Assembly: GCA_049997875.1 (NCBI GenBank)
Contig: JBEKRC010000004.1
Coordinates: forward strand, 8,928-72,927
Source: Minisyncoccia bacterium
Lineage (GTDB): Bacteria > Patescibacteriota > Minisyncoccia > UBA6257 > 2-01-FULL-56-20
Reading direction: 5' to 3'
Length of the DNA: 64,000 bases
Each line of letters starts with the position of its first letter. The first letter of the stretch is position 1. A program made the translations under genes and the position numbers. Positions 999 through 56,672 of the stretch are shown piece by piece. The notes under the pieces were generated by a model. It saw only the letters and a program-made list of their open reading frames with translations. It searched no databases and was not told the origin of the DNA.

Positions 999-1703
999 CT
1001 ATCGCGCTTCCGTGCGATCGCGCAACTTTCCCAAAAGGTATGTCGCGTATTCCCTCCCGCCAAGGCCGAAGGCCAAACCGCCCGCCAGGGCAAGCATCGC
1101 GATGAATCCCGTCACAATGCTTTGGATGATAGAAACCGCAATCTCTAGCTGCGTAAGCGCCGCAAGGAACCCGAAGATCACGATCGCCCACCACGTGAGC
1201 GTCCCCAAGAAGTGCGCCGCGTGGAGCTTTGCGCTCAAAACCGACGCCATCACGACCCGCCGCATGAAATGCCCCACGACCACCGCCGCGAGCATGATGA
1301 GCACCGCCGCGATCACGTTCGGAATATACGTGAGCACCGCGCCCAAGAAGTTTGAGAGTGCGTAGAGGCCCAGGCTGCCGCACACCGCAAGCAGAAACGC
1401 AATCACAATGAACCAGTAGACCAGGCGGCCGAGGAAATACGATCCCCGAAGGCGCAGGCCGGCGCGTTCAAAATAGGGCCTCAGACCAAGCTTTTGAAGA
1501 AACGTGTCCAGGCGAAGCGCTTCAAAGATCTTTTCCACGAGCGCTCCCAGCGCTGCGGCGACGATAAGGCCGAGGATAAGAACGATGATTGCTCCGATCA
1601 GGTTCGGCACAAAGCTCGCGAATTGGAGCCATACGCTCTGGAGCGACACCACCACAAACTCCGTCCAACTCTGTATTATCATTATTTCATGACAAACCCC
1701 CAA
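999..1703 (-). CDS. Polytopic membrane protein, conserved-TM-helix-repeat / small mechanosensitive channel-like
   Basis: 234 aa with multiple hydrophobic helices (IGAIIVLILGLIVAAALGALVEKIF...) and repeated helix modules; no catalytic motifs. Confidence 0.5.
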   Translation of the reverse strand: MGVCHEIMIIQSWTEFVVVSLQSVWLQFASFVPNLIGAIIVLILGLIVAAALGALVEKIFEALRLDTFLQKLGLRPYFERAGLRLRGSYFLGRLVYWFIVIAFLLAVCGSLGLYALSNFLGAVLTYIPNVIAAVLIMLAAVVVGHFMRRVVMASVLSAKLHAAHFLGTLTWWAIVIFGFLAALTQLEIAVSIIQSIVTGFIAMLALAGGLAFGLGGREYATYLLGKLRDRTEAR

Positions 1704-2980: not shown

Positions 2981-3115
2981 AGATTTCGTTTTCCTTGTGG
3001 ACTCAGCGAGAATCGGACTCGCGTCTCCGCAATGCGAATGCGGCGTATTACCACTATACTATGAGCCCCTGTTTCTCTTTAGAAGATAATAGCACCTAAC
3101 AAAAAGTTTTTCAAT

Positions 3116-4012
3116 TCATTTCAGGAAATTATAGGGAAAGTTGCTGAATCTTCTCTTCGCGAACATCGGTACGGAATGAAAGAACTGGATCCATGCCCTA
3201 AGGTAGTGTTTTTTAACATAGATGTCCTCATTGTGCTCAACGAGCAGCTTGAATATCGCCAAAATTGTTTCTTGATAATACTCGTGGCTATTTGTGCGCA
3301 GAGTCTTTCGCCATAGATTGATTATTCTTTCGTTCTCGGGGGCGTTGATAAACGTTTCTACGGAGAAGAGAGACCTCGTCCCCAATATGCTGAATATTTC
3401 ATGTGCATCCGGATCGCCAATGGTTAGATATTTCCCTTTGTATGCATAAAGGATCCTCGGGAAGGGATCGTATCCGGTCTTGTCCTCTATCAAAAATGGG
3501 AGGCGGACGTTGCGCTCATCCAACTCTCTCTTTAGACGTTTGATCTGTTTCTTTCCATAATAATCGACGACGAAATGCTTCGGGTGCGGGACGATGATCA
3601 TCATTTCCCGTTTGTGAGCGACATACTCTAAAAACTCTTCTTCGGTGAGATTAGCAAAGATCTCTTCGTTAGGCAGAATTCGGTAATGAAGCTTCTCGGT
3701 GTAGCCCCTCAGATCGTCATGATTGCCGAAAGTCAGGAGTTCCCTTCTTGCAACTAGCTTTAAAACGGCGTCGGTCATCCTTTTTTTTATTTTCCACTGG
3801 ATGCCCGGGATGACCAGTACCTTTTCGGTGGAAAAACTTATCGCTTGGCTTACCAATAATGGAATTACGTTATGGTCCGATACGCCTAAAACCGCATATT
3901 CTTTTTCTTTCAGGGTTTTTTCCAAGTATGCCACATATTCGCGAATTGTGGTCGAGCTATCATGGGATCTTTCCGAATGGACGTGAAAAAGGAAAAAGAG
4001 GCGCGGGCTCAC
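3116..4012 (-). CDS. PHP-domain metal-dependent phosphoesterase
   Basis: PHP motifs HVHSERSHDS (HxH..S.D) and VSDHN; 298 aa; AT-rich relative to flanks. Confidence 0.6.
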   Translation of the reverse strand: MSPRLFFLFHVHSERSHDSSTTIREYVAYLEKTLKEKEYAVLGVSDHNVIPLLVSQAISFSTEKVLVIPGIQWKIKKRMTDAVLKLVARRELLTFGNHDDLRGYTEKLHYRILPNEEIFANLTEEEFLEYVAHKREMMIIVPHPKHFVVDYYGKKQIKRLKRELDERNVRLPFLIEDKTGYDPFPRILYAYKGKYLTIGDPDAHEIFSILGTRSLFSVETFINAPENERIINLWRKTLRTNSHEYYQETILAIFKLLVEHNEDIYVKKHYLRAWIQFFHSVPMFAKRRFSNFPYNFLK

Positions 4013-4031: not shown

Positions 4032-6254
4032 TCACGCCGCAGCCGGTTCCAGCTTCAGGGAAACGATCTTTGACGTCCCGTCCTCGCCAAGCGTCACGCC
4101 ATAGAGGATGTCCGCCACCTCCATCGTCGCGCGGTTGTGGGTCACGATGATAAATTGCGTCCGCTTTGAAAAATCTTTGAGCATGTCGCCGAAGCGGCGG
4201 GCATTGCGCTCGTCAAGAGGCGCGTCAACCTCGTCCAGCACAAGAAACGGCGGCGGACTTACGGCCACCATCGCGAAAAGCGCGGCGATGCCGACCAAGC
4301 TCCGCTCGCCGCCCGAGAGCATGTCAAGCGTCGTAACCTTCTTCCGCGGCAGGCGGATGTCAATGTCCACGCCGCCGTCTTTTTCTATCGCCATTTCCTC
4401 CTCGGCCTTCTCTCCCTCGTCACGCATCGCTCCCTCGCCAGCATCGCCTTCCTCCGCGTCGCCCGCCTCCACTTTTGCCACCCTTGGCTTTTCCACCTTC
4501 AACTTTGCCATGCCGCCGCCGAACATAAGCGCGAAGAATTTGCCGAATTCCTCATTGATCTTCGTAAGCGATTTATCAAATTCCGTTTTTATCTTTTCGC
4601 TCAATTCCTGCATGAGGCGCGTGAGGTCCGCAACTGCTTTTTCAAGGTCTTCGGATTCCTTTGTAAGGAAGGCGTACCGCGTTTCGGTGTCGCGCGCTTC
4701 TTTCATAAGTGCTTGATCAATCTCACCGATGGATGCAAGATCGCCACGCAGTCGGAAAATCCGCTGCTCCATTGCATGAAGATCGCCCTCGTGCATGGCT
4801 TCCGGAACCTCCGCGTGCGCGAATTCCTCCGCGCGCCGCCCCGCCTGCTCAATTTGGTGCAATACCTCGCCGCGCCGCAAATCCACCCGCTCTTTCTGGA
4901 GCACATGCTCCCGATGCTCGTTTTCCCATTCCCCTATCCGGTCCTTCGCCGCCTGCACATCCGCAACCGCGGCCTTGAAAACCTTGTAAAAACTTTCCTG
5001 GCTTTGCTCAAAGGATTTTTCTTTTTCCCGAAGCCCAAGAACTTCTTTCTCCAGAGAAACGAGGTCGCGGGATATTTTCTCAAATTGCGCCTTAAGCCCG
5101 CCCTCCGCGTCTTTCGATTTTCCGCCTTCCTTTTCTTTCTCTACGAGGACATCCTTAATTTCCTCCAGGATATTTTCTGCCGTCGCATGCAGTTCAAGCG
5201 CATCTTCCTCAAGCGCGCGTTCCAGCTCTTCCTTCACCATACGCACCAGGTTCAAAAGGCGCTCTGCGGAGGGACTGCTGCTTGTGACGCCAGTTTCTCC
5301 CGATTCTCTGAGCTCAATCTGCGCCTCCAAGCGCCCGAGATCTTTCTGCAGGGCACTTCGTTTCTCCCCCAACGACCCGATCTCGGCGCGGATCGCCGCA
5401 AGGTTCTTCTGCTCCGCCGGCTGGCTCGCTTCAATCTCCGCCTGCCGCGTTTCCGCCTCGCGCCGCGCGCGGTCCAAAATCTCCCGCTGTTTCTCGTTTA
5501 CCGCAATCTTTTCTTCCACTTCCCCGCTCTGCCGCGCGAGCTCCTTCAATCGGAAGCCGAAAAAGATCGCCTCCAGCCCGCGCAATTCCTCCTCAAGCGC
5601 GCCGCGCTTTTCCCACCGGTTCGTCTGCCGCTTCAGTGACCGCAAGTGCGGCAGGATTTCTTCAACCAGCGCTTTCGTTTTATCCAAATTGATCCGGCTA
5701 TTCTTCAACCGCCGCTCCGCATCCGCCTTTTTGAGCTGATATTCGCGGAGACCTAAAAGTTCCTCTATCATCTCGCGGCGCTCCATGGGCGTTGAGCGGA
5801 CAAAAAGATCGCTGTCGCCCTGGCCTATAATGATGAGCCCGCGCGAGCCCATGCGCGCCTTTGCAAAGAAATCAACAAGGTCGCGGAGAAGCACCTCCGC
5901 CTTATTCAAAAAATACTTGCTGTCGCCGCCGCGCGAAACCTGCCGCGTGATCATAACCTCCTCAAAATCCACCGGGAAAAACTTGTTCCGGTTCTCAAAG
6001 TGCAAACTGGCGTTCGCCATACCCACGCGCGGACGCTTCTGGGTCCCGGCGAAAATAAGGTCTTCCACTTTACCGCCGCGCAGATTTTTCGCATCCCGCT
6101 CGCCGAGAAGCCATCGCATGGCGTCCACCAAGTTTGATTTCCCTGACCCATTCGGCCCCACGATCGCCACAATCCCCGCCGGAAATTCCAAAACCGTCTT
6201 CCCCGCGAAGGATTTGAATCCGTTCAATTCAAGCCGCTTCAAAAAATGTGCCAT
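4032..6254 (-). CDS. smc: SMC-like chromosome segregation ATPase, short form with no recognisable hinge
   Basis: N-terminal Walker A FKSFAGKTVLEFPAGIVAIVGPNGSGKSNLVDAM; C-terminal signature LSGGERSLVGIAALFAM and Walker B FLVLDEVDAPLDE; the middle is a long Glu/Arg/Lys-rich coiled coil. ATG at 6254 (MAHFLKRLELNGF), 5 nt downstream of the rnc stop. About 740 aa versus ~1150-1200 for canonical SMC. Confidence 0.75.
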   Translation of the reverse strand: MAHFLKRLELNGFKSFAGKTVLEFPAGIVAIVGPNGSGKSNLVDAMRWLLGERDAKNLRGGKVEDLIFAGTQKRPRVGMANASLHFENRNKFFPVDFEEVMITRQVSRGGDSKYFLNKAEVLLRDLVDFFAKARMGSRGLIIIGQGDSDLFVRSTPMERREMIEELLGLREYQLKKADAERRLKNSRINLDKTKALVEEILPHLRSLKRQTNRWEKRGALEEELRGLEAIFFGFRLKELARQSGEVEEKIAVNEKQREILDRARREAETRQAEIEASQPAEQKNLAAIRAEIGSLGEKRSALQKDLGRLEAQIELRESGETGVTSSSPSAERLLNLVRMVKEELERALEEDALELHATAENILEEIKDVLVEKEKEGGKSKDAEGGLKAQFEKISRDLVSLEKEVLGLREKEKSFEQSQESFYKVFKAAVADVQAAKDRIGEWENEHREHVLQKERVDLRRGEVLHQIEQAGRRAEEFAHAEVPEAMHEGDLHAMEQRIFRLRGDLASIGEIDQALMKEARDTETRYAFLTKESEDLEKAVADLTRLMQELSEKIKTEFDKSLTKINEEFGKFFALMFGGGMAKLKVEKPRVAKVEAGDAEEGDAGEGAMRDEGEKAEEEMAIEKDGGVDIDIRLPRKKVTTLDMLSGGERSLVGIAALFAMVAVSPPPFLVLDEVDAPLDERNARRFGDMLKDFSKRTQFIIVTHNRATMEVADILYGVTLGEDGTSKIVSLKLEPAAA

Positions 6255-6258
6255 TGCG

Positions 6259-6948
6259 TTACGGGAGACGTTTTTGGAGCGCGTGCTTCGCTGCGTCAAG
6301 TTCTGCTTCCTGTTTGGATGCTCCCTCGCCGTCCGCCACAAACTTGTCCCCGAAATAAACGCCCATTTTGAAGACACGCTGGTGCGCGGGACCCGTTTCT
6401 TCCATCACGCGATAGGTAGGGGTGATGCGCAATCTTTCCTGGATCAATTCCTGCAGTTCGCTCTTCGCGTCCCGGTAGCTTTTCGTCTTCATCACATCCT
6501 CCAGGTTACTCACAATGTTCTTTTTCACGAACGCGTGAACTTTTTCAATCCCCTGGTCAAGGTACATCGCACCGATCACCGCCTCAATCGCGTTCGCGAG
6601 GATAACCTCGCGCGCCTTGCCGGTATCTTTCCGTTCGCCGCGCGACATCAGAATGAAACCATCCAAACCGATGGACTCCGCGATGCGCGCCAAAATTTGG
6701 TAGTTCACAAGCGCCGCGCGGAGCACGGTCAATTTTCCTTCGGGATAATCGGGAAATTTTGCGAAAAGCGCTTCCGAAACGAGCAATTCCAAAACCGCGT
6801 CGCCGAGATACTCCAGGCGCTCGTTGTGCGGCAACCGCCATCTCGGGAACTCATTCAAGTACGAACGGTGGGTCAGCGCTTCGGTCAATAGGTCTTCGTT
6901 CTTGAATGAAATTCCGAGTTTTTTCTGTAATGGTGTGGTATCCATCAT
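6259..6948 (-). CDS. rnc: Ribonuclease III
   Basis: RNase III signature HRSYLNE...[13 protein letters not shown] plus a C-terminal dsRBD ([18 protein letters not shown]). Confidence 0.9.
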
Positions 6949-7403
6949 TTTTTTTGCGTGGAACGTTCTACGTCCGCCGCCTTCCGCTCTCCTACTTCGC
7001 GGTAGATCGTTCCCAAAACGCCGTTCACGAACCGCGCCGCGTTCGGTCCCCCGTAATTCTTCGCAAGCTCAATCGCTTCGTTGATGGCCACCTTCGGCGG
7101 CACTTCTTCGGGATCGGCGTACAAAAGCTCGTAGAGGCCGATGCGCAGGATGTTGCGGTCAATGATGGCGATCTTGTCCAGCGGCCACTCGGGAGCGGCT
7201 TTCGTGATCACATTGTCAATGTGTTTCGTGTGCTCCACGACGCCCTTCAAAATTTTCCACGCGAACTCCGGCTCATCAATGCTGGGCGCGAATTCGGCGA
7301 GGTTCCGCTCCAGAATCTCCGTCACGTCCTTTTTGCGACCGTAAAAATCCCACTCATAGAGGGTTTGGAGAATCACGGTCCGAATTAAGTGTCTGGTTGC
7401 CAT
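6945..7403 (-). CDS. nusB: Transcription antitermination factor NusB
   Basis: 152 aa; [22 protein letters not shown]...[20 protein letters not shown] is the typical NusB fold sequence. Confidence 0.85.
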
Positions 7404-7444
7404 TGTGTTTCTAAAGAACTGACCGCCCCGCTATCCGCGCGCCT

Positions 7445-7597
7445 TCATTTTGCTCCGCATTGCGCGCAGGCGCGGTGCGCCAATTTCGGCGCGCCGCAAT
7501 TTTTACAGACAAACAGGCGCTGTTTTTTCATCGCCAAATGCGAACGCCGCCGACCCACTTTCCCTTTTGAGTGATGTTTGACTGGTACGCCTCCCAT
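7445..7597 (-). CDS. rpmF: 50S ribosomal protein L32 (50 aa; below the 60-aa cutoff of the ORF track)
   Basis: Translating the minus strand gives MGGVPVKHHSKGKVGRRRSHLAMKKQRLFVCKNCGAPKLAHRACAQCGAK*, matching the L32 pattern (basic N-terminus, RRSH, CxxC..CxxC zinc ribbon). ATG at 7597, TGA at 7445. Confidence 0.8.
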   Translation of the reverse strand: MGGVPVKHHSKGKVGRRRSHLAMKKQRLFVCKNCGAPKLAHRACAQCGAK

Positions 7598-7612
7598 TGC
7601 CTTGCCGCGTGT

Positions 7613-8212
7613 CTATGCGTCCATGATAGATGATTTTGCGACGAACGTCAAACGGTGCGCGGGGCAGGGGCCGTGCGTTTGGATCGCCTTCCGATGCGCT
7701 TTCGTTCCGTATCCTTTGTGGATTTCAAAACCGTATGCCGGGTATCGCTTCGCAAGCCGCCGCATCAGGCGGTCGCGATGAACCTTCGCCACAACCGAGG
7801 CAATCTTTACGGCGTTTATCTTTTCGTCGCCCCTCACGATTGTCTTTGCACCCGTAGGCTGCTCGCCATTGCCCAAAAAAAGGCCGCCATCAAGGAAAAC
7901 GCGGCAGTTCCTTATCCCCGTCAATCTTCCAAAAGCCCGCGCTGCCGCAAGATTGGCGGCTTTTGAAATGTTCCGCTTCTCTATCTGTCGCGGATACACA
8001 CGCGCTAAAGCGAATTCTACAATCTGATGTTCGTTCCAATACGCGCACCACGCTTCGCGCTTCTTCGCGCTCAACTTCTTGGAATCTTTTAATATGCCGA
8101 GTATGCGATTGTGCGGTTTAAATCCGGCGGGCACTGCTGCGGCAGCAACCACGACCGGTCCCGCAAGCGCGCCGCGGCCAACTTCATCCACCCCCACAAT
8201 CCATTTCGTCAT
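7613..8212 (-). CDS. rnhB: Ribonuclease HII
   Basis: GVDEVGRGALAGPVVVAAA N-terminal RNase HII motif and conserved catalytic region; 199 aa. Confidence 0.85.
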   Translation of the reverse strand: MTKWIVGVDEVGRGALAGPVVVAAAAVPAGFKPHNRILGILKDSKKLSAKKREAWCAYWNEHQIVEFALARVYPRQIEKRNISKAANLAAARAFGRLTGIRNCRVFLDGGLFLGNGEQPTGAKTIVRGDEKINAVKIASVVAKVHRDRLMRRLAKRYPAYGFEIHKGYGTKAHRKAIQTHGPCPAHRLTFVAKSSIMDA

Positions 8213-8223
8213 TGAAAAGCTTT

Positions 8224-8634
8224 TTAGAGCCCTCCCCCAAAATTCCCCAAATTCCCCACCTCATTTAATGACGACTGGACCAGCTGCTGCGTCCACACGA
8301 TCAAAAGCCACATCATGACAACCGTTGAGATTCCCATAAGCACGGAGGCGATGATGCCGATCTGTTTCGCATTTTCATCGTCGGATCTGATATATTTGAC
8401 CCCCGGCCAATAATGTAACGCCAGGAACGCGATCCACGGCATAACAATGCTCAACGCATAAATCCATGCCTGCGTTGCCGCCGTCGTGGAAAGTGGTTTC
8501 TCTTTGAGCGCCCCTCCGCAGTTCGGACAAAAATAAAATTCCGGCTGCACCGGCTGATGGCACGCGGGACAGATAGACAGGCGTGCATCTGGTGCTTGCG
8601 TCACCGGAGAAATTGGCACAGGGATGTTCTCCAT
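8224..8634 (-). CDS. Hypothetical zinc-ribbon membrane protein
   Basis: N-terminal CPACHQP...CPNCGG zinc-ribbon followed by two TM helices. Confidence 0.45.
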   Translation of the reverse strand: MENIPVPISPVTQAPDARLSICPACHQPVQPEFYFCPNCGGALKEKPLSTTAATQAWIYALSIVMPWIAFLALHYWPGVKYIRSDDENAKQIGIIASVLMGISTVVMMWLLIVWTQQLVQSSLNEVGNLGNFGGGL

Positions 8635-8643
8635 ACCTTTATT

Positions 8644-9486
8644 TTAGCATCTGTAGGAATTTATCAACCTTTCCAATATTTCCTTTTTCTCCAAAGATTC
8701 TTTCCAAACACTGTTTGAACGTAATCCATTTATACAAACGCCGTCCGAAAAATTTATGACATCTCTAAATCTCAAAAGATCGGCTCTCCGTGAAATACAG
8801 AGTTCATAAAATCGCGCTTCCATCCGGCTCGCGATGCCGAGGTCGGCAAGCAATTCCTTCACTAACTGCAAAATTTCTAAAGAATGCTGGTATCCGCGGA
8901 CGATCCGTTTTCTTGGAGTAAACGTAACGTTGCCTTCGTCGTCATAAAAGGCTTTCAAAAATGCGGTCTTCTCCTCATAAGAACCGCCACGGATATAACT
9001 TAAAAGTTCTCTGACTTTCTGTCTCAAAAACGCTGCAATTTCAACATGATGATAGCTCACCCTCAACACGCCATCTGGCTTCCTGAGCAATTTATAATCA
9101 GAAACTCCCAGGACTGTATCCATAAGCGAGATGACGTTATTTACCAGTGTTCGGCTCCGATTGTTGTAAATAGATGAAACCCGCGAAATTTCTCCATCAA
9201 ACATAAAATGAGCCACCAAACCAACAAAGGCCGCATTCCATTCCAATGGCACCCGGTAAGAATACGGCTTTACAGATTTACCACGCCTCCCGTCGGTTAA
9301 TGTTTTCTGCTTGGCGCGATTGATGGCGAGGAGTCTTCCTTTAAGATAGTTGGACTTTGCTAAATTTTTTATGTGATAAAATGCGGTTGACTTGGGAATG
9401 TTCGTTTCGGTGATAATTTCACCCAAGGTGAAACCTTGCTGCCGAAGTAATTTTATTCTTTCAATGGTTTCAGCGCTCTGCTTCAT
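8644..9486 (-). CDS. LAGLIDADG-type homing-endonuclease-like protein with N-terminal HTH domain
   Basis: Two LAGLIDADG-like motifs (FVGLVAHFMFDGEIS and FLKAFYDDEGNV) and an N-terminal HTH (GFTLGEIITETNIPKSTAFYHIKNL). The ATG at 9486 is 1 nt from the tRNA-Lys 3' end; lower GC than the backbone. Confidence 0.55.
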   Translation of the reverse strand: MKQSAETIERIKLLRQQGFTLGEIITETNIPKSTAFYHIKNLAKSNYLKGRLLAINRAKQKTLTDGRRGKSVKPYSYRVPLEWNAAFVGLVAHFMFDGEISRVSSIYNNRSRTLVNNVISLMDTVLGVSDYKLLRKPDGVLRVSYHHVEIAAFLRQKVRELLSYIRGGSYEEKTAFLKAFYDDEGNVTFTPRKRIVRGYQHSLEILQLVKELLADLGIASRMEARFYELCISRRADLLRFRDVINFSDGVCINGLRSNSVWKESLEKKEILERLINSYRC

Positions 9487-9487
9487 G

Positions 9488-9560
9488 TGCCCCCACTAGG
9501 ACTCGAACCTAGGACCATCTCGTTAAAAGCGAGCTGCTCTGCCAACTGAGCTATGGGGGC
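9488..9560 (-). tRNA. tRNA-Lys (anticodon UUU)
   Basis: Hand-folded cloverleaf: acceptor GCCCCCA/TGGGGGC, D-arm GCTC-AGTTGGCA-GAGC, anticodon loop CTTTTAA, T-arm CTAGG-TTCGAGT-CCTAG, discriminator A; 73 nt; CCA not encoded. Confidence 0.85.
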
Positions 9561-9658
9561 GATCACATTAAATCATTCGTTATTATAAAGAAAAACAGTG
9601 CGGATTTCAATGTGTGGAGCACGGACGACATTTTGTATCGCACTATTCATGCCGCCCC

Positions 9659-10408
9659 TTAGACATCAATCTCAAGCAGAATCGGCAGATGGTCGGAATA
9701 TTTTGTCTTAGGAATGCGGGAGGAGAGGACTTTTACGTCCTTTGTGGCAAAAACATAATCAAGGCGCCAGCGGAGTTTGGTTTCCCTGAATCCGCGGTAG
9801 TCAAACGGCTTCGTCGTCCATGTGTTCTCGCGGAAATCCGGACCACAGTGCTTGAGGTATCTTTGAATGTTCTCAATGGTATAAGAACGAGGGGATGCAT
9901 TGAGATCTCCCGTGAAAATAAAATTCCTTTTCTTCCGCCTAAGGATGCTGAGAAGCGCATCGGCTTCTTTCCGCTTTGCGGGTGTTGTGACGAAACGTTT
10001 TGTATAAGAGGTATGCGTCGTGCCCACGACAAGCGCGCGCTTTCCCGGCACGGCAACCCTCACTTCTCCATATATTCGTCCCAAGGTTGAATAATTTCCT
10101 GTATAGGGCATTTCCTTTTGGACATGTCGGGAAAATACGGCTTTAATTGGGAACCGACTGAAAATCCCATTGCCGAACGGAAATTGTTCTCCTTTTTCGT
10201 TCGGCTGTTTTTGAGCAGGAAAGAAGGCGTAATAAAAATGCAGTTCATTCGCTATTTTTTTCGGAACATCTTCGTACTTGTTCCATTTTCCGCCCACCAC
10301 AAGCTCCTGAAAACAAGCAATGTCGGGATTCACTTTCTTGACGAATCGTATAATGTTTCCTACACCTTCCTCATTCCAAACATTCCACTGCAATATCTTT
10401 ATATGCAT
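9659..10408 (-). CDS. Endonuclease/exonuclease/phosphatase (EEP) family protein
   Basis: N-terminal IKILQWNVW and C-terminal SDHLPI motifs typical of the EEP fold; 249 aa. Confidence 0.7.
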   Translation of the reverse strand: MHIKILQWNVWNEEGVGNIIRFVKKVNPDIACFQELVVGGKWNKYEDVPKKIANELHFYYAFFPAQKQPNEKGEQFPFGNGIFSRFPIKAVFSRHVQKEMPYTGNYSTLGRIYGEVRVAVPGKRALVVGTTHTSYTKRFVTTPAKRKEADALLSILRRKKRNFIFTGDLNASPRSYTIENIQRYLKHCGPDFRENTWTTKPFDYRGFRETKLRWRLDYVFATKDVKVLSSRIPKTKYSDHLPILLEIDV

Positions 10409-25217: not shown

Positions 25218-25231
25218 AATAAAAATGGTCA

Positions 25232-25259
25232 GGGGCGGGAATCAGACACGATTCCCGCC
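25232..25259 (+). terminator. Hairpin GGGCGGGAAT-cagacacg-ATTCCCGCCC 15 nt after the stop of the secreted-protein gene (no U-tract)
   Basis: Perfect 10-bp inverted repeat seen in the sequence. Confidence 0.45.
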
Positions 25260-25516
25260 CGCGAAACTTATCCTCCTCCGCAGGGACTTTCCAAGTCCTC
25301 TGCGTGGTTTCGATTTGGAAGATATCTTTCAATATATCTCCCCTCCAGGCATTTCAACCATAGTCCCACCAAACAATATAACAACAACCGCATAGGAACC
25401 TCCTTTGGGAACAAAGAGCTATTTCAGACCAGTGGCTTTTCCCTCTGGCCTGAAAATTGGTTATTGCTCCTCTCGCCCCTCTGCTTTTCCCAACAACCAA
25501 TTTTCAGACCGGATGA

Positions 25517-25545
25517 CCAAAAAACCTCCCTTGGCGGGGAGGTTT
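25517..25545 (-). terminator. Intrinsic terminator on the minus strand (AACCTCCC-loop-GGGAGGTT followed by TTTTTT)
   Basis: Seen directly; there is no annotated minus-strand gene upstream of it within the 25546..25756 gap. Confidence 0.45.
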
Positions 25546-25756
25546 CGGTGTCTATAGTTTGGTTCTTTTTCTCTACTTTTTCCTTATTTTTCCATATACG
25601 ACACTTCCCCGCCTTTTTGTTGAAAGGATAAGCAAAAGCCCGAGGAGAAGACCAAGGGAGAGTGTCAAAACTTCTTGTCCAAATACTGTCATTGCTTCCA
25701 GTATGGGGCGAGAGCGCGGGTTTGTCAATCCACAGAGCATGCCGTAAGATTTTCAT

Positions 25757-33487: not shown

Positions 33488-33603
33488 ACGTTTCTCCTTT
33501 TTTGACATACACCCGAACTTCAAGGTGCTCCTCGGAGGATGGCACAACACCCATTAAAATCCTCCCAAATAAAGATTAAATTTTTATTAAAAGAAATTTG
33601 CGG

Positions 33604-51858: not shown

Positions 51859-52053
51859 ACGAGGGAATTATAGCAAAAAATTGCGGAATGTAAAAATCCC
51901 GTTGTTTAACGATTTTTTAATAAAACCCGCTTTCTAGTTGTTTTTGCTTTGAGCGTGCTTGTATATTTCCGATATCTAAATTGTGACGCTGTCCGGTATG
52001 CCGGCCGCCCCGGCCGATTCCCCACTTTCGCATAGTTTTTCATTTTATCAAAA

Positions 52054-53858: not shown

Positions 53859-55064
53859 TCAGAGATGCGCGAACGCTTCACTGAAGGTCGCAATGGTCCA
53901 CCTAGCGGACTTTTCGAGCGCACCGATAGTGTCGGCATACCGACAGAATCGGGCGTCGAACTCCACTGCGAAAGGATGACCAGTCTGGGCAGACCACTTG
54001 GCGCCGAGTTTAATCGTGTCGAGCTGGTCCTTCACCCACTCCGCGACACCTTCTCCGGGCAGAAAGTCGTTATCAACGTACTGCTGGAACTCCGAGGCAG
54101 GCGTGCCGCCCGGCTTGGACAGCAGCTCTGTGAAGCTCACAGTACCCAGTCCACCGGAGTTGAGATGTATCGCGCCGCCGAAGACACCTGCGTCGATTGC
54201 TTGTTGCATCGCAGCGGCGAACTTCTGGCCACCGCCACGACTGTGGCAGAATTCTCCTTGCCACTCGGCGACCATGGCTCCGGCCACCTTATTGATTTGC
54301 CGAACGCATTCAATCTCGAGCGAAGTGTCCGTGAATACGTCGAGATAGCAAGGATCGCCGGCAGGTTTGCCCTCGATTTTCAGCTTTGTGTTGGTAAACC
54401 CCCTTTCCCGAGCCATCTTCACGGCGTTGCCCACGCCGTTCACGATCAGACTCCACTCCTCGAGTTGCGGATTGAAATCGTGTCCGAGGAGCACGTCGTG
54501 ACCCTGGACGAGCCTCTTCCACCGAATGCCGTCCGGCCCTGTCCAAAAGATTACATCACCTTCGCTGCCTGCCATCTTGACACGGTCCGACCACTTGAAG
54601 CTGTAGATCAACATGTCGCTGGCTAGCTTTCGACGGATCGGATCTGGATTGATGAATGCTCCGTCATCGCTTCCGGGAAGACCGAACCCGGGAGGAACGA
54701 TGCGTCCGATCAGCGGGTAGTGGCCGCACAATGCGCCATCCATCCATTGATCGAGGGAGATACCCCGTGGATTGTTCCACTGGGCGCTGTAGCCAACTTC
54801 TGGCGCGTCATCGGGAACGCGCAGCTCGTGCCACCAGTGACCCGACACTGCGATCTCGATGCCGTGCTCGGCCATCAAGCGCTTGTTCAGTTGAGCAACC
54901 GCCCAGAGCGCTTCGGCCATAGTTGTATAACCACCGGCAGTCGGGTTCCCGAAGGCCATAATCTGCCTCAGGAGATGCCAGCTACCGACCAGTAACTTCA
55001 ACGTAGGCGCGTGTTTCATGCTGTACCATCCTTTTTGTGTCAGTCTTATTACGGTTGTGAACAA
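53859..55064 (-). CDS. Sugar isomerase of the L-rhamnose-isomerase (RhaA)-like TIM-barrel type
   Basis: 401 aa; IAVSGHWWHELRVPDD and LLGHDFNP resemble the E. coli RhaA motifs VSMHCWQGDD and GLDFNP; the assignment is tentative. Confidence 0.4.
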   Translation of the reverse strand: MFTTVIRLTQKGWYSMKHAPTLKLLVGSWHLLRQIMAFGNPTAGGYTTMAEALWAVAQLNKRLMAEHGIEIAVSGHWWHELRVPDDAPEVGYSAQWNNPRGISLDQWMDGALCGHYPLIGRIVPPGFGLPGSDDGAFINPDPIRRKLASDMLIYSFKWSDRVKMAGSEGDVIFWTGPDGIRWKRLVQGHDVLLGHDFNPQLEEWSLIVNGVGNAVKMARERGFTNTKLKIEGKPAGDPCYLDVFTDTSLEIECVRQINKVAGAMVAEWQGEFCHSRGGGQKFAAAMQQAIDAGVFGGAIHLNSGGLGTVSFTELLSKPGGTPASEFQQYVDNDFLPGEGVAEWVKDQLDTIKLGAKWSAQTGHPFAVEFDARFCRYADTIGALEKSARWTIATFSEAFAHL

Positions 55065-55612
55065 CCTCCGTTACATTAGTACGAATTAAGTTCTTGTCAA
55101 GAAATTCGGCCACACCCGTCAGTTCCGATTTCTGCCGCTGGTAGCAGTTCCGGACAAAAAACGAAAACGTAGCACACTCTGCGAGCGGCATTTTTCTTAG
55201 GGTCTTATTAACCCTGGGTAGGTCACTTTCACCAAAACTGTCTGCTCTGGCAGTTGGAATCGAAACGCAATAGAGCCACATTCAATACCCTCGCATGAGA
55301 TTTTTATAGACCATGTTGAAAACGGCCGTACCGTGGAGCCGCCGGGATTTGCGCCCGATTCTTCGCTTTCCAAAGACGATATTCTAACTGTAATAAACTA
55401 CGGCCCCGTCTCCACGGCGCGCTTACCATAGCAAAAACACGATTAAAATTATTTAAAATGCAAACGGCCACAAAAGTGGTCGTTGCACGGAAAGCGAAGA
55501 ATTAATCCGTAGTCATACAGACTAATACCGTCTTCCTAAAAAGGATAGCGCTCCCGAGCAAAAAGTCAAACATCGTTTAATAAAAATTTAATGTCCCCGA
55601 GAACAACGAAGC

Positions 55613-55754
55613 GCCGCAGTGCTTTTGAGAGGATCGCGCAGCCCCGTTCGGCTTGGTCCGAAATGCCGTTGCGTGCATTTCGGCGAACGGGGCGAGCGGC
55701 AAGAAAAATTTCTCGCCGGAAGAAATTTATTCTGGCTCTCAAAAGCACTGTGGC
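55613..55754. repeat. ~140-nt nested inverted-repeat (long-stem hairpin) element immediately 3' of ftsX
   Basis: The outer 15-19 bp arms (gCCGCAGTGCTTTTGAGAG ... CTCTCAAAAGCACTGtGGC) enclose the inner inverted repeats CCCCGTTCG/CGAACGGGG, CCGAAATGC/GCATTTCGG and GGCGAG/CTCGCC. Confidence 0.6.
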
Positions 55755-55760
55755 GCGAGC

Positions 55761-56672
55761 CTAGTTTCGTAGGTACCGCCTGACCGCAATAAAACTGGAA
55801 AGTCCGCCGATCACAACACCGAAGAGAAGTTCGTAAAGGAAAAATTGCAGGAGATGGACATAGAAATATCGAAAAATGCTCAAGCCGGGGATGAACACAT
55901 CAAGATACGGCGAAACGAAATAAAGCATGGGCGCGATCAGGATCAGGCTGACGACCGTTGAAATCGCGCCGCAGAGCACGCCCTCCACCACGTACGGCCC
56001 GCGTACGAGGGCATTGGAAGCGCCCACCACGCGCATGACGCCGATCTCCTCGCGGTTGGAATAGATGGCGAGGCGGATCGTATTGAAAGCCACGAGCCCG
56101 GCGATGAGCGCGAGAAGCAGCGCGACGACAAATCCGCCGGTCTCCACCGTTTTAACGATCTTTGCGAGCCTTTCAATCACGGTCTGGTTATTGTAATAGC
56201 TCGGCTGGCCATCAAGGTACTGCGTGATGTCGGGCGAGCTCAAGTATTGCGCGATCGCCGCGTACTGGCTCGGATCCTTCGCTTTGATATTGAGCGACGC
56301 TTCCAGCGGATTCGTATCAAGTTCGTTGATCGCCTGGCTCACGGTCGCATCGCTCGCGTGGTTTTGCTTGAAGATCGCGAGCGCCTGATCGCGCGAAATA
56401 TAACTCACGCTCTGCACCTCCGATAATCCCTCAAGCGACTGCTGGATGTTCAAAATCTGGTCCTCGGAGGTGTTCGTATTGAAGTACACGCTGATGTCAA
56501 TCTTGTCTTGGATGGAGGCAGCGGCGCGGTCGGTGATCACGCCGAAAATGATGAGCGAACCGAATACGAAAAGCGCAACGGTCATGATGGCCATCGTCGC
56601 CATGGAAAGCCACCCGTTCCGCCGGAAGTTCTTCAGCCCGAATTGGAAGATGCGCGAAATGACCGTGATCAT
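55761..56672 (-). CDS. ftsX: Cell division permease-like protein FtsX
   Basis: 303 aa; N-terminal TM, large periplasmic loop, three C-terminal TM helices; follows ftsE. Confidence 0.85.
   Translation of the reverse strand: MITVISRIFQFGLKNFRRNGWLSMATMAIMTVALFVFGSLIIFGVITDRAAASIQDKIDISVYFNTNTSEDQILNIQQSLEGLSEVQSVSYISRDQALAIFKQNHASDATVSQAINELDTNPLEASLNIKAKDPSQYAAIAQYLSSPDITQYLDGQPSYYNNQTVIERLAKIVKTVETGGFVVALLLALIAGLVAFNTIRLAIYSNREEIGVMRVVGASNALVRGPYVVEGVLCGAISTVVSLILIAPMLYFVSPYLDVFIPGLSIFRYFYVHLLQFFLYELLFGVVIGGLSSFIAVRRYLRN

Follow-up and report, generated by a model that had tools for sequence, protein, structure and literature searches.

The 64-kb window analysed here, a stretch of one contig from a Minisyncoccia bacterium, carries on its minus strand prfB, ftsE and ftsX (55761–56672), followed by a 696-nt gap, an orphan gene for a 386-aa protein (53859–55019), isochorismatase, NUDIX and HAD-like genes, and atpB. 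On a crude gene map this gap downstream of ftsX is the largest in the window, and because patescibacterial genomes are tiny, any non-coding stretch of 700 nt that is retained should be costly. To our knowledge, the non-coding RNAs, transcription terminators and repeats of Patescibacteria have hardly been described. The identical ftsX–gap locus is present in several peat and soil assemblies. Our reading of the gap, in which we have middling confidence as a whole, is a mosaic of three non-coding units that are independent of one another and share the orientation of ftsX on the minus strand (Table 1). A sequence-only reading had treated these 700 bp as one structured region poor in open reading frames (ORFs), with none convincing. 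Instead, the middle of the gap is a separate conserved unit, its last ~260 nt are unstructured, and a tRNA-like gene detected by both Rfam and ARAGORN had been overlooked. Comparisons were made with related loci (designated L and a number), of which a one-genome-per-species scan with FtsX gave 42, including L002; the others were added by later searches.

Table 1. Features of the ftsX–atpB interval, in window coordinates unless a related locus is named.
Feature	Position	Strand	Description
Unit 1, Y element	55611–55756	minus	Y-shaped hairpin with three-way junction; P1 outer stem, arms P2 and P3
P1, 5′ arm	55736–55756	minus	GCGCCACAGUGCUUUUGAGAG; pairs with 55611–55631
P2 hairpin	55702–55733	minus	AGAA-U-AAAUUUCU / loop UCCGGCG / AGAAAUUU-UUCU; 12 bp
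P3 hairpin	55635–55699	minus	Long, two-part; inner repeats 55641–55650/55684–55693 and 55658–55666/55675–55683
Unit 2	55320–55593	minus	Promoter motif, two-hairpin RNA and tRNA-like gene; conserved in orthologues
Promoter-like motif	55542–55593	minus	AT-rich ATTAAATTTTTATTAAA, TTGACT, 16 nt, TATCCT; from promoter scan
Two-hairpin RNA candidate	55458–55536	minus	H1, 14-nt segment, H2
H1 hairpin	55503–55524	minus	Mostly one-sided, pairing-compatible changes between window and L061
Linker segment	55489–55502	minus	AUUCUUCGCUUUCC; 14 nt between H1 and H2
H2 hairpin	55458–55488	minus	GUGCAA-CGACCAC-UUUU-GUGGCCG-UUUGCAU; U-rich run follows
Leader strand	55410–55417	minus	CCGUGGAG; pairs with CUCCACGG (55331–55338), overlapping 3′ acceptor strand and trailer
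tRNA-like gene	55333–55407	minus	Rfam tRNA, 43.1 bits; ARAGORN 75-nt cloverleaf
Helix C, 3′ strand	55358–55371	minus	GGAAAGCGAAGAAU; anticodon-loop 3′ side, stem and variable region; pairs with 55489–55502
Unit 3	55065–55332	minus	Upstream region of the accessory 386-aa gene; no structure signal
atpB-upstream motif	~51950–52040	minus	(A)TGAAAAAYYATGCGAARGTGGGGAATCGGCCGGGGCGGCCGGCATAYCG...
atpB-upstream motif, related loci	L001 5445–5530; L002 5148–5220; L003 ~4935–5010; L060 2005–2075; L064 ~1385–1460; L065 ~1500–1570		

The first unit, which we call the Y element, begins 4 nt past the ftsX stop codon (55761–55763). Its predicted fold energy is −84.8 kcal/mol on the minus strand and −88.4 kcal/mol on the plus strand (z −8.7 and −8.0, respectively), and none of 200 shuffles folds as well. 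The ~140-nt nested structure reported by the sequence-only reading is indeed there: the 21-nt arms of P1, which are 95% complementary with one A–C mismatch on the minus strand, enclose the 12-bp hairpin P2 and the two-part long hairpin P3. P2 is preceded by an A-run and followed by a U-run, while P3 consists of P3a (GCCCCGUUCG/CGAACGGGGC) and the inner stem P3b (CCGAAAUGC/GCAUUUCGG), separated by a 7-nt bulge, ACCAAGC (55651–55657), and closed by a terminal loop of 8 nt. Across copies, the element spans 140–180 nt with a P1 clamp of 21–36 bp, and the window copy matches the covariance model of the family at 150.8 bits. The Rfam check that the sequence-only reading had proposed yielded no family: the gathering-score scan of the window against Rfam 15 returned four tRNA matches only, a scan of 54900–55900 at E≤10 returned the tRNA and two chance-level matches of 14–16 bits, and the other copies of the element had no Rfam match either.

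Comparison of the window with the orthologous copy in L002 revealed nine compensated pairs and no broken pair among 56. When eight sequences were aligned, 95.5% of cells were paired and 39 of 55 pairs had changed on both sides, a figure reached by none of 500 shuffles and compared with 8–14 pairs in slid controls; this alignment is fitted to the model, and an independent MAFFT alignment of five copies gave 23 of 55 pairs. We take the hairpin just 3′ of ftsX to be real, as had been proposed, and a selected structure. The loop of P2 has the consensus UCCNGCG in all eight full copies, and the bulge ACCAAGC is kept in seven of the eight, with ACCAAUC in L061. P3b is likewise identical in seven of eight, and L056 swaps in a different, still paired stem while keeping the bulge. 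G–U pairs are rare, numbering 12 of ~470 when the element is read in sense and 7 when it is read in antisense, and neither strand is consistently more stable across copies, the appearance of DNA palindromes or of bidirectional hairpins. This, together with the core identities given next, argues against a simple ‘structured RNA gene’.

The apex and the outer stem have distinct histories. The P2–P3 cores of L051 and L002, which are not orthologous in position, are 96% identical, compared with 88% for the orthologous pair of window and L002, and yet the outer stems of the former two show no relationship past the inner few pairs. Across copies, similarity in P1 is confined to the inner ~11 bp, and the outermost stem has no consensus. 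Conversely, L064 and L067 (FtsX 82–85%) bear at the same site after ftsX a 173-nt hairpin with an entirely different interior, whose outer stem has the segment CUGCUUUU/AAAAGCAG in common with the Y element. The core likeness between L051 and L002 with unrelated stems, and the common stem around a different interior in L064 and L067, indicate that apex and clamp evolve as separate modules.

We found nine further members of the family, remnants included, in DNA of related Minisyncoccia, where they occupy at least six genomic contexts. L002 (FtsX 94% identical) was the only locus of the 42-locus FtsX scan to carry the element, in the same place after ftsX, and a third orthologous copy was found via FtsX homologues in L061 (FtsX 83%). 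In L060, only the first ~30 nt are left, fused to sequence upstream of atpB, and the element is absent from L001 (FtsX 98%), L003 and L065. These orthologous copies, together with the absences and the remnant in close relatives, indicate that the element is ancestral at the 3′ end of ftsX in this clade and has been lost repeatedly. A metagenome pattern scan on the P3 core recovered copies 1 nt past the fusA stop codon (L051), directly behind a large ORF and ahead of a DNA methyltransferase gene (L054/L050), and between a divergent secE–nusG pair and a gene of unknown function (L053). A six-frame translation search for copies hidden in spurious ORFs gave two matches, one lying 5 nt past tRNA-Pro(CGG) (L055) and one between a divergent gene and uvrB (L056); a longer, concatenated six-frame query found no further copies. 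A covariance-model search added a short variant 10 nt past tRNA-Arg in L016 and a weak relative (27 bits, E 0.001) in L015, where a ~115-nt hairpin (3142–3238) with a 25-bp outer stem ending CUUUUAAAAG lies 48 nt upstream of ftsE. Counting independent contexts only, the element starts within 12 nt of the end of a co-oriented gene in five of seven; with the ftsX orthologues counted separately, it does so at seven of nine loci. The genes concerned are ftsX in the window, L002 and L061, fusA in L051, the large ORF in L054, tRNA-Pro in L055 and tRNA-Arg in L016. The downstream gene is co-oriented with the element in the same share of contexts, and the orientation bias is suggestive, not decisive.

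Some of these copies have neighbours that we record as separate observations. Ten nucleotides past the Y element of L051, before a 166-aa ORF that by eye resembles a PemK/MazF-type toxin, lies a 22-nt fragment like a tRNA 3′ end (TTCGAATCCTGCCCTGTGCACA, 2435–2460), possibly an integration scar. In L055, ~1.3 kb from the Y copy, a 23S rRNA gene (6636–10223) contains at least two group I introns (Rfam Intron_gpI, 9015–9239 and 9974–10223). Additionally, in both L055 (+ strand, ~5040–5195) and L016 (+ strand, ~840–990), a candidate structured RNA of ~150 nt converges on the Y element from the opposite side. It combines a closing stem GGGAAUC/GAUUCCC with three to four hairpins that differ compensatorily, and its 3′ end bears a T-arm-like GGUUCGAUUCC. 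Neither ARAGORN nor Rfam at E≤1 detected this candidate, which could be an intron-containing tRNA or a tRNA-like RNA; no homology was found between it and window 55430–55612.

Our best reading of these data is that the Y element represents an undescribed family of dispersed palindromic intergenic elements of Minisyncoccia/Paceibacteria. Several of the same observations would also be produced by a selfish or formerly mobile palindromic DNA repeat (MITE-, REP-, ERIC- or RPE-like) without a function of its own, its complementarity kept by template switching or hairpin-templated repair, an account that we consider less likely but to which we give substantial weight. A near-identical core recurs at non-orthologous sites; presence, absence and truncation differ between close relatives; G–U pairs are scarce and folding is as good on one strand as on the other; two copies (L053 and L056) sit between divergent genes; and the element occupies an ftsX–atpB slot of variable gene content. 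Set against such an origin, inspection of the copies found neither conserved termini nor a target-site duplication, and conservation is higher in the apical core and loops than at the ends, the reverse of the pattern in elements recognised by transposases. Copy density is also low, with ten elements or remnants in all the DNA analysed: with filters off, the window contains a single copy and ~9 kb more of the same strain contain none, so that the genome-wide dispersal raised by the sequence-only reading was found between genomes, at non-orthologous sites, and not within the ~73 kb of this genome. Scans of viral contigs with three patterns and blastn of the whole gap against phage and plasmid collections gave no match, and the orientation bias likewise sits poorly with a passive repeat. 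A phmmer search with one reading frame of the element against 1.84 billion representatives returned only low-identity matches to giant repeat proteins, plus P0001, and was uninformative on the element.

Palindromic intergenic repeats that are co-transcribed with flanking genes include ERIC/IRU in enterobacteria, Correia elements in Neisseria, the Rickettsia palindromic elements (RPE) and REP/BIME. These share with the Y element a size of 100–170 nt, an intergenic hairpin form often placed just past stop codons, presence at many unrelated loci and presence or absence between close relatives, and as RNA hairpins they can affect termination or stability. Related copies at non-orthologous intergenic sites, expected of MITE- and REP-type elements, were found here; the conserved terminal inverted repeats and target-site duplication typical of MITEs were not. 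Unlike these repeats, the Y element has unconserved ends and no TA or other target duplication, a conserved apical core (P2 loop, P3 bulge and stem) within a locus-specific outer stem, a three-way junction in place of a simple rod, an apparently low copy number, and a host in a lineage of Patescibacteria. Comparison with integron attC sites, retrons, 6S RNA, signal recognition particle RNA and ribozymes led us to reject each of these, as there is no adjacent enzyme gene, no Rfam match and a different architecture. In our literature searches on patescibacterial repeats, terminators and structured RNAs, nothing of this kind was described.

From its position and shape, we infer a role for the Y element as a hairpin stop, insulator and 3′-end protector. 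It would be transcribed as the tail of the ftsEX message, where it may stop or pause RNA polymerase, shield the 3′ end of the upstream transcript and insulate ftsEX from the strong promoter-like motif ~20 nt further on. P2, with its flanking A- and U-runs, would supply a terminator-like hairpin, to which P1 would add a clamp of 21–36 bp. Like intrinsic terminators, including bidirectional ones, the element sits directly 3′ of genes, and its stems are almost purely Watson–Crick; P2 appears to have the shape of an intrinsic terminator in most copies, and the L051 version (9 bp, 3 G–C pairs, tail TTCTTG) passes a terminator-shape scan. It differs from them in its length of 140–180 nt, in the long clamp around the terminator-like hairpin, and in a sequence-conserved P3 core that a terminator would not need.

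A number of observations weigh against this interpretation. An intrinsic-terminator scan of 54900–55900 found no terminator-like site, the P2 of the window failing it, and a scan of the L002 copy was equally negative. There is no U-run after P1 in the window. The copies in L053 and L056 have no co-oriented upstream gene, and the element is dispensable, its close relatives L001, L003 and L065 doing without it. Compensatory changes in near-perfect palindromes can, moreover, come from replication template switching without selection on RNA, and the view of the element as a dispersed repeat has to accommodate the single copy found in ~73 kb of this genome and its lack of conserved ends or target-site duplication. 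Of the readings first offered, the evidence fits a blend of terminator-like and REP-like element, given the covariation and the non-orthologous copies; for the structured-RNA reading, dispersed copies had been named in advance as contrary evidence.

The constant apex nevertheless bears on whether the Y element encodes a stand-alone RNA, with P1 acting as an RNase III-type processing stalk that releases a ~100-nt P2–P3 RNA whose P3 bulge and loops bind protein or RNA. Retention of the bulge in seven and of the P2 loop in eight of the eight full copies, and the compensatory replacement of P3b in L056 around an unchanged bulge, are what such an RNA would predict; at 21–36 perfect base pairs, moreover, the stems of P1 offer sufficient length for double-strand-specific RNases. 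We nonetheless regard this possibility as very unlikely, since scans of the window, L002 and L051 found no promoter belonging to the element, close relatives dispense with it and no Rfam family matches it. Two tertiary contacts were also examined by eye, a kissing interaction between the P2 and P3 loops and base pairing between the P3 bulge and the junction of P2 and P3, and neither covaried across copies.

Large hairpins at this position extend beyond the Y family. Unrelated hairpins of 100–175 nt directly follow the ftsX stop in other lineages, more distant clades among them, namely in L012 (−86.9 kcal/mol), L024, L030, L033, L034/L035/L042 (compensatory changes in 12 of 41 pairs) and L064/L067 (z −8.7 in L064). 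Such recurrence suggests that these bacteria have repeatedly benefited from a strong hairpin where ftsEX ends. The Y element itself delimits one side of the slot for variable accessory genes that separates two core operons. We regard it as a new family of the known intergenic, palindromic, terminator-like kind, with an unusual design in which a conserved apex sits in a locus-specific clamp.

The second unit is 79% identical over 276 nt to L065/L066 (FtsX 81%). In L065, it directly follows the ftsX stop with no Y element between, and in L061, its first half lies behind the Y element without the tRNA-like gene. It opens with a promoter-like motif that is conserved in L061 and L065, and that recurs in the window at 33575–33600, upstream of an 86-aa ORF, as well as in L051, L007, L008, L015 and L017; finding it again within the window and across five further loci favours a genuine promoter type. 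Next comes the candidate two-hairpin RNA, for which no Rfam 15 family was found. Between the window and L061, H1 shows six one-sided changes that interconvert A–U, G–U and G–C pairs, plus one double change, and because the same changes would be mismatches on the other strand, H1 is read on the minus strand. The pairing of H2 is kept in L061 and L065, with loops UUCG or CUCG and outer pairs changed from G–C to A–U. All of the inverted repeats listed by the sequence-only reading were present in the gap, and its near-palindrome GGCCACAAAAGTGGTC (55468–55483) falls within H2.

The tRNA-like gene at the end of this unit scores well above the RF00005 threshold of 29 bits, and below the window's other three tRNAs (65–69 bits); its orthologue in L065 scores 40.8 bits. 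ARAGORN labels it Pro(UGG) in the window and Leu(UAG) in L065, the body being otherwise homologous. The gene thus has the cloverleaf of a canonical tRNA and lacks both the elbow nucleotides and a constant anticodon: the D-loop AUUACAGUUA has no GG (G18 G19), and the T-loop, CGCAAAU in the window and UGCAAAU in L065, has no T54-Ψ55-C56. G3–U70 and A73 are kept in both, and acceptor pair 4–69 changes compensatorily from G–C to A–U. As a side observation, the T-loop of the window's tRNA-Ala(CGC) (2997–3068, minus strand) is UCCGAUU, with C at position 55, and the score of that gene is nonetheless 65.9 bits; this lineage may tolerate T-loops of non-canonical sequence.

Two long-range helices tie the tRNA-like gene to the RNA upstream of it. 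Helix C, a 14/14 perfect inverted repeat in the window, joins the H1–H2 linker to the anticodon arm, and is kept in L065 as 13 bp, with four pairs changed on both sides and one wobble. The anticodon stem itself is weak, its 3′ side pairing instead with the upstream segment. The second helix joins leader and trailer, and corresponds to the 8-bp repeat CCGTGGAG/CTCCACGG (55331–55338 and 55410–55417) already singled out in the sequence-only reading; by our estimate such a repeat is, alone, about what chance would give in 700 nt, but its persistence in L065 as GCCGUGGA/UCCACGGC, shifted by one pair, supports a leader/trailer helix. Altogether, five pairs of unit 2 have changed on both sides, compared with none or one in slid controls.

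Because covariation maintains the 14-bp complementarity, we infer a joint function for the upstream RNA and the tRNA mimic: they would either fold as one RNA or pair as two, the upstream partner then masking the anticodon arm of the mimic. Unit 2 may form a single RNA of ~210 nt, in which helix C and the acceptor stem would make a pseudoknot, or it may adopt alternative folds, or it may yield two pairing transcripts. The evidence is complicated by the crossing of helix C with the acceptor stem, which requires either a pseudoknot or alternative folds, by H2, which could end the upstream RNA and so leave two separate transcripts, and by the number of full orthologues behind the covariation, which is only two. 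By inspection, the mimic is preceded by a conserved TGCTA(Y)GGT, a possible extended −10 box.

G3–U70 and A73 are the nucleotides that alanyl-tRNA synthetase reads in tRNA-Ala and in transfer-messenger RNA (tmRNA). The mimic resembles the alanine-identity domains of these molecules in keeping both features within a cloverleaf above the Rfam gathering score, and departs from them in its variable anticodon (UGG versus UAG), its (C/U)GCAAAU T-loop and its D-loop without GG. A tmRNA or permuted tmRNA was considered and rejected: ARAGORN found none in the window or L065, the window has no Rfam tmRNA match, and tmRNA_permuted scores 15.7 bits in L065 against a threshold of 47, with no conserved tag reading frame by inspection. 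A second parallel is the 3′ETS-leuZ sponge of E. coli, in which a small RNA pairs with a tRNA precursor. That system resembles unit 2 in that a small RNA, equipped with its promoter and a terminator-like hairpin, can pair with part of a neighbouring transcript of tRNA type. In unit 2, by contrast, the pairing is to the body of the mimic (anticodon arm and variable region) and not to a spacer, and the partners are adjacent and may be one transcript.

The same features could be left by decay, with the tRNA-like gene a pseudogene from an integration event and the complementarity a by-product of inverted partial duplication. Its low score (43 bits, compared with 65–69 for the other three tRNAs), its missing T-Ψ-C and D-loop GG, its location in a variable accessory slot and the tRNA 3′ fragment beside the Y element of L051 are all in keeping with such a history. 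A decaying gene would not be expected to lie in a unit 79% conserved between species, to change compensatorily in its acceptor stem and in helix C, or to keep its odd T-loop in both the window and the L065 orthologue, and the upstream segment also occurs in L061, which has no tRNA-like gene; we therefore judge the pseudogene account highly improbable. A bolder joint proposal would make unit 2 a tRNA-mimic system of a new type, alanine-accepting, with no fixed anticodon or canonical elbow and with its arm masked by a partner RNA through the covarying 13–14-bp helix, functioning as a two-part tmRNA-like RNA or as a decoy or sensor RNA, and would make the Y element a mobile apical cassette that enters long terminator hairpins. 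The contrast of L064-type with L002-type elements at one site hints at such entry of the P2–P3 core into existing hairpins. We consider the combination quite unlikely.

On the favoured reading, with a terminator-like palindrome behind ftsX and an interacting RNA and tRNA mimic beyond it, the locus yields two covariation-supported non-coding families absent from Rfam. The tRNA look-alike with its partner RNA is the more surprising part. Its anticodon differs between species while its alanine identity nucleotides and its pairing partner are kept. If expression were confirmed, the two families would offer entry points to 3′-end formation and tRNA mimicry in uncultivated, host-dependent bacteria, and would improve annotation, as pipelines now label the mimic tRNA-Pro or tRNA-Leu.

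The third unit is best read as the ordinary upstream DNA of the accessory gene cluster, and 55065–55335 shows no excess structure (fold z −0.22). Public gene callers place a 99-aa ORF at 54982–55281 without support, and protein-family searches found no family match for it. None of the 42 related ftsX loci contains a homologue of the 386-aa gene, and its product has no match in Pfam (even at E≤10), NCBIfam, PHROGs or PDB sequences; a single-sequence structure prediction was unusable (pLDDT 36.7). By eye, some motifs of the protein recall xylose-isomerase-like TIM barrels. What lies between ftsX and atpB differs across relatives: atpB follows ftsX almost directly in L005 and L022, and the accessory genes after ftsX vary, with NUDIX only in L001, CYTH proteins in L062 and DUF3850 in L065. 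These differences place the gap at the margin of a slot whose content varies and which has a core operon on either side.

At the far side of this slot, the atpB-upstream motif of Table 1 occurs ~100–190 nt upstream of atpB in every clade member. It sits upstream of an apparent atpB promoter (TTTACA-17-TATAAT), has no Rfam match at the gathering score, and may represent a small RNA in its own right or else a regulatory site. Elsewhere in the window, 25218–25756 is a second ORF-poor stretch (~540 nt, fold z −4.2), which contains a hairpin with 23-nt arms (25444–25513) followed by a classic G+C-rich hairpin (about 25522–25545).

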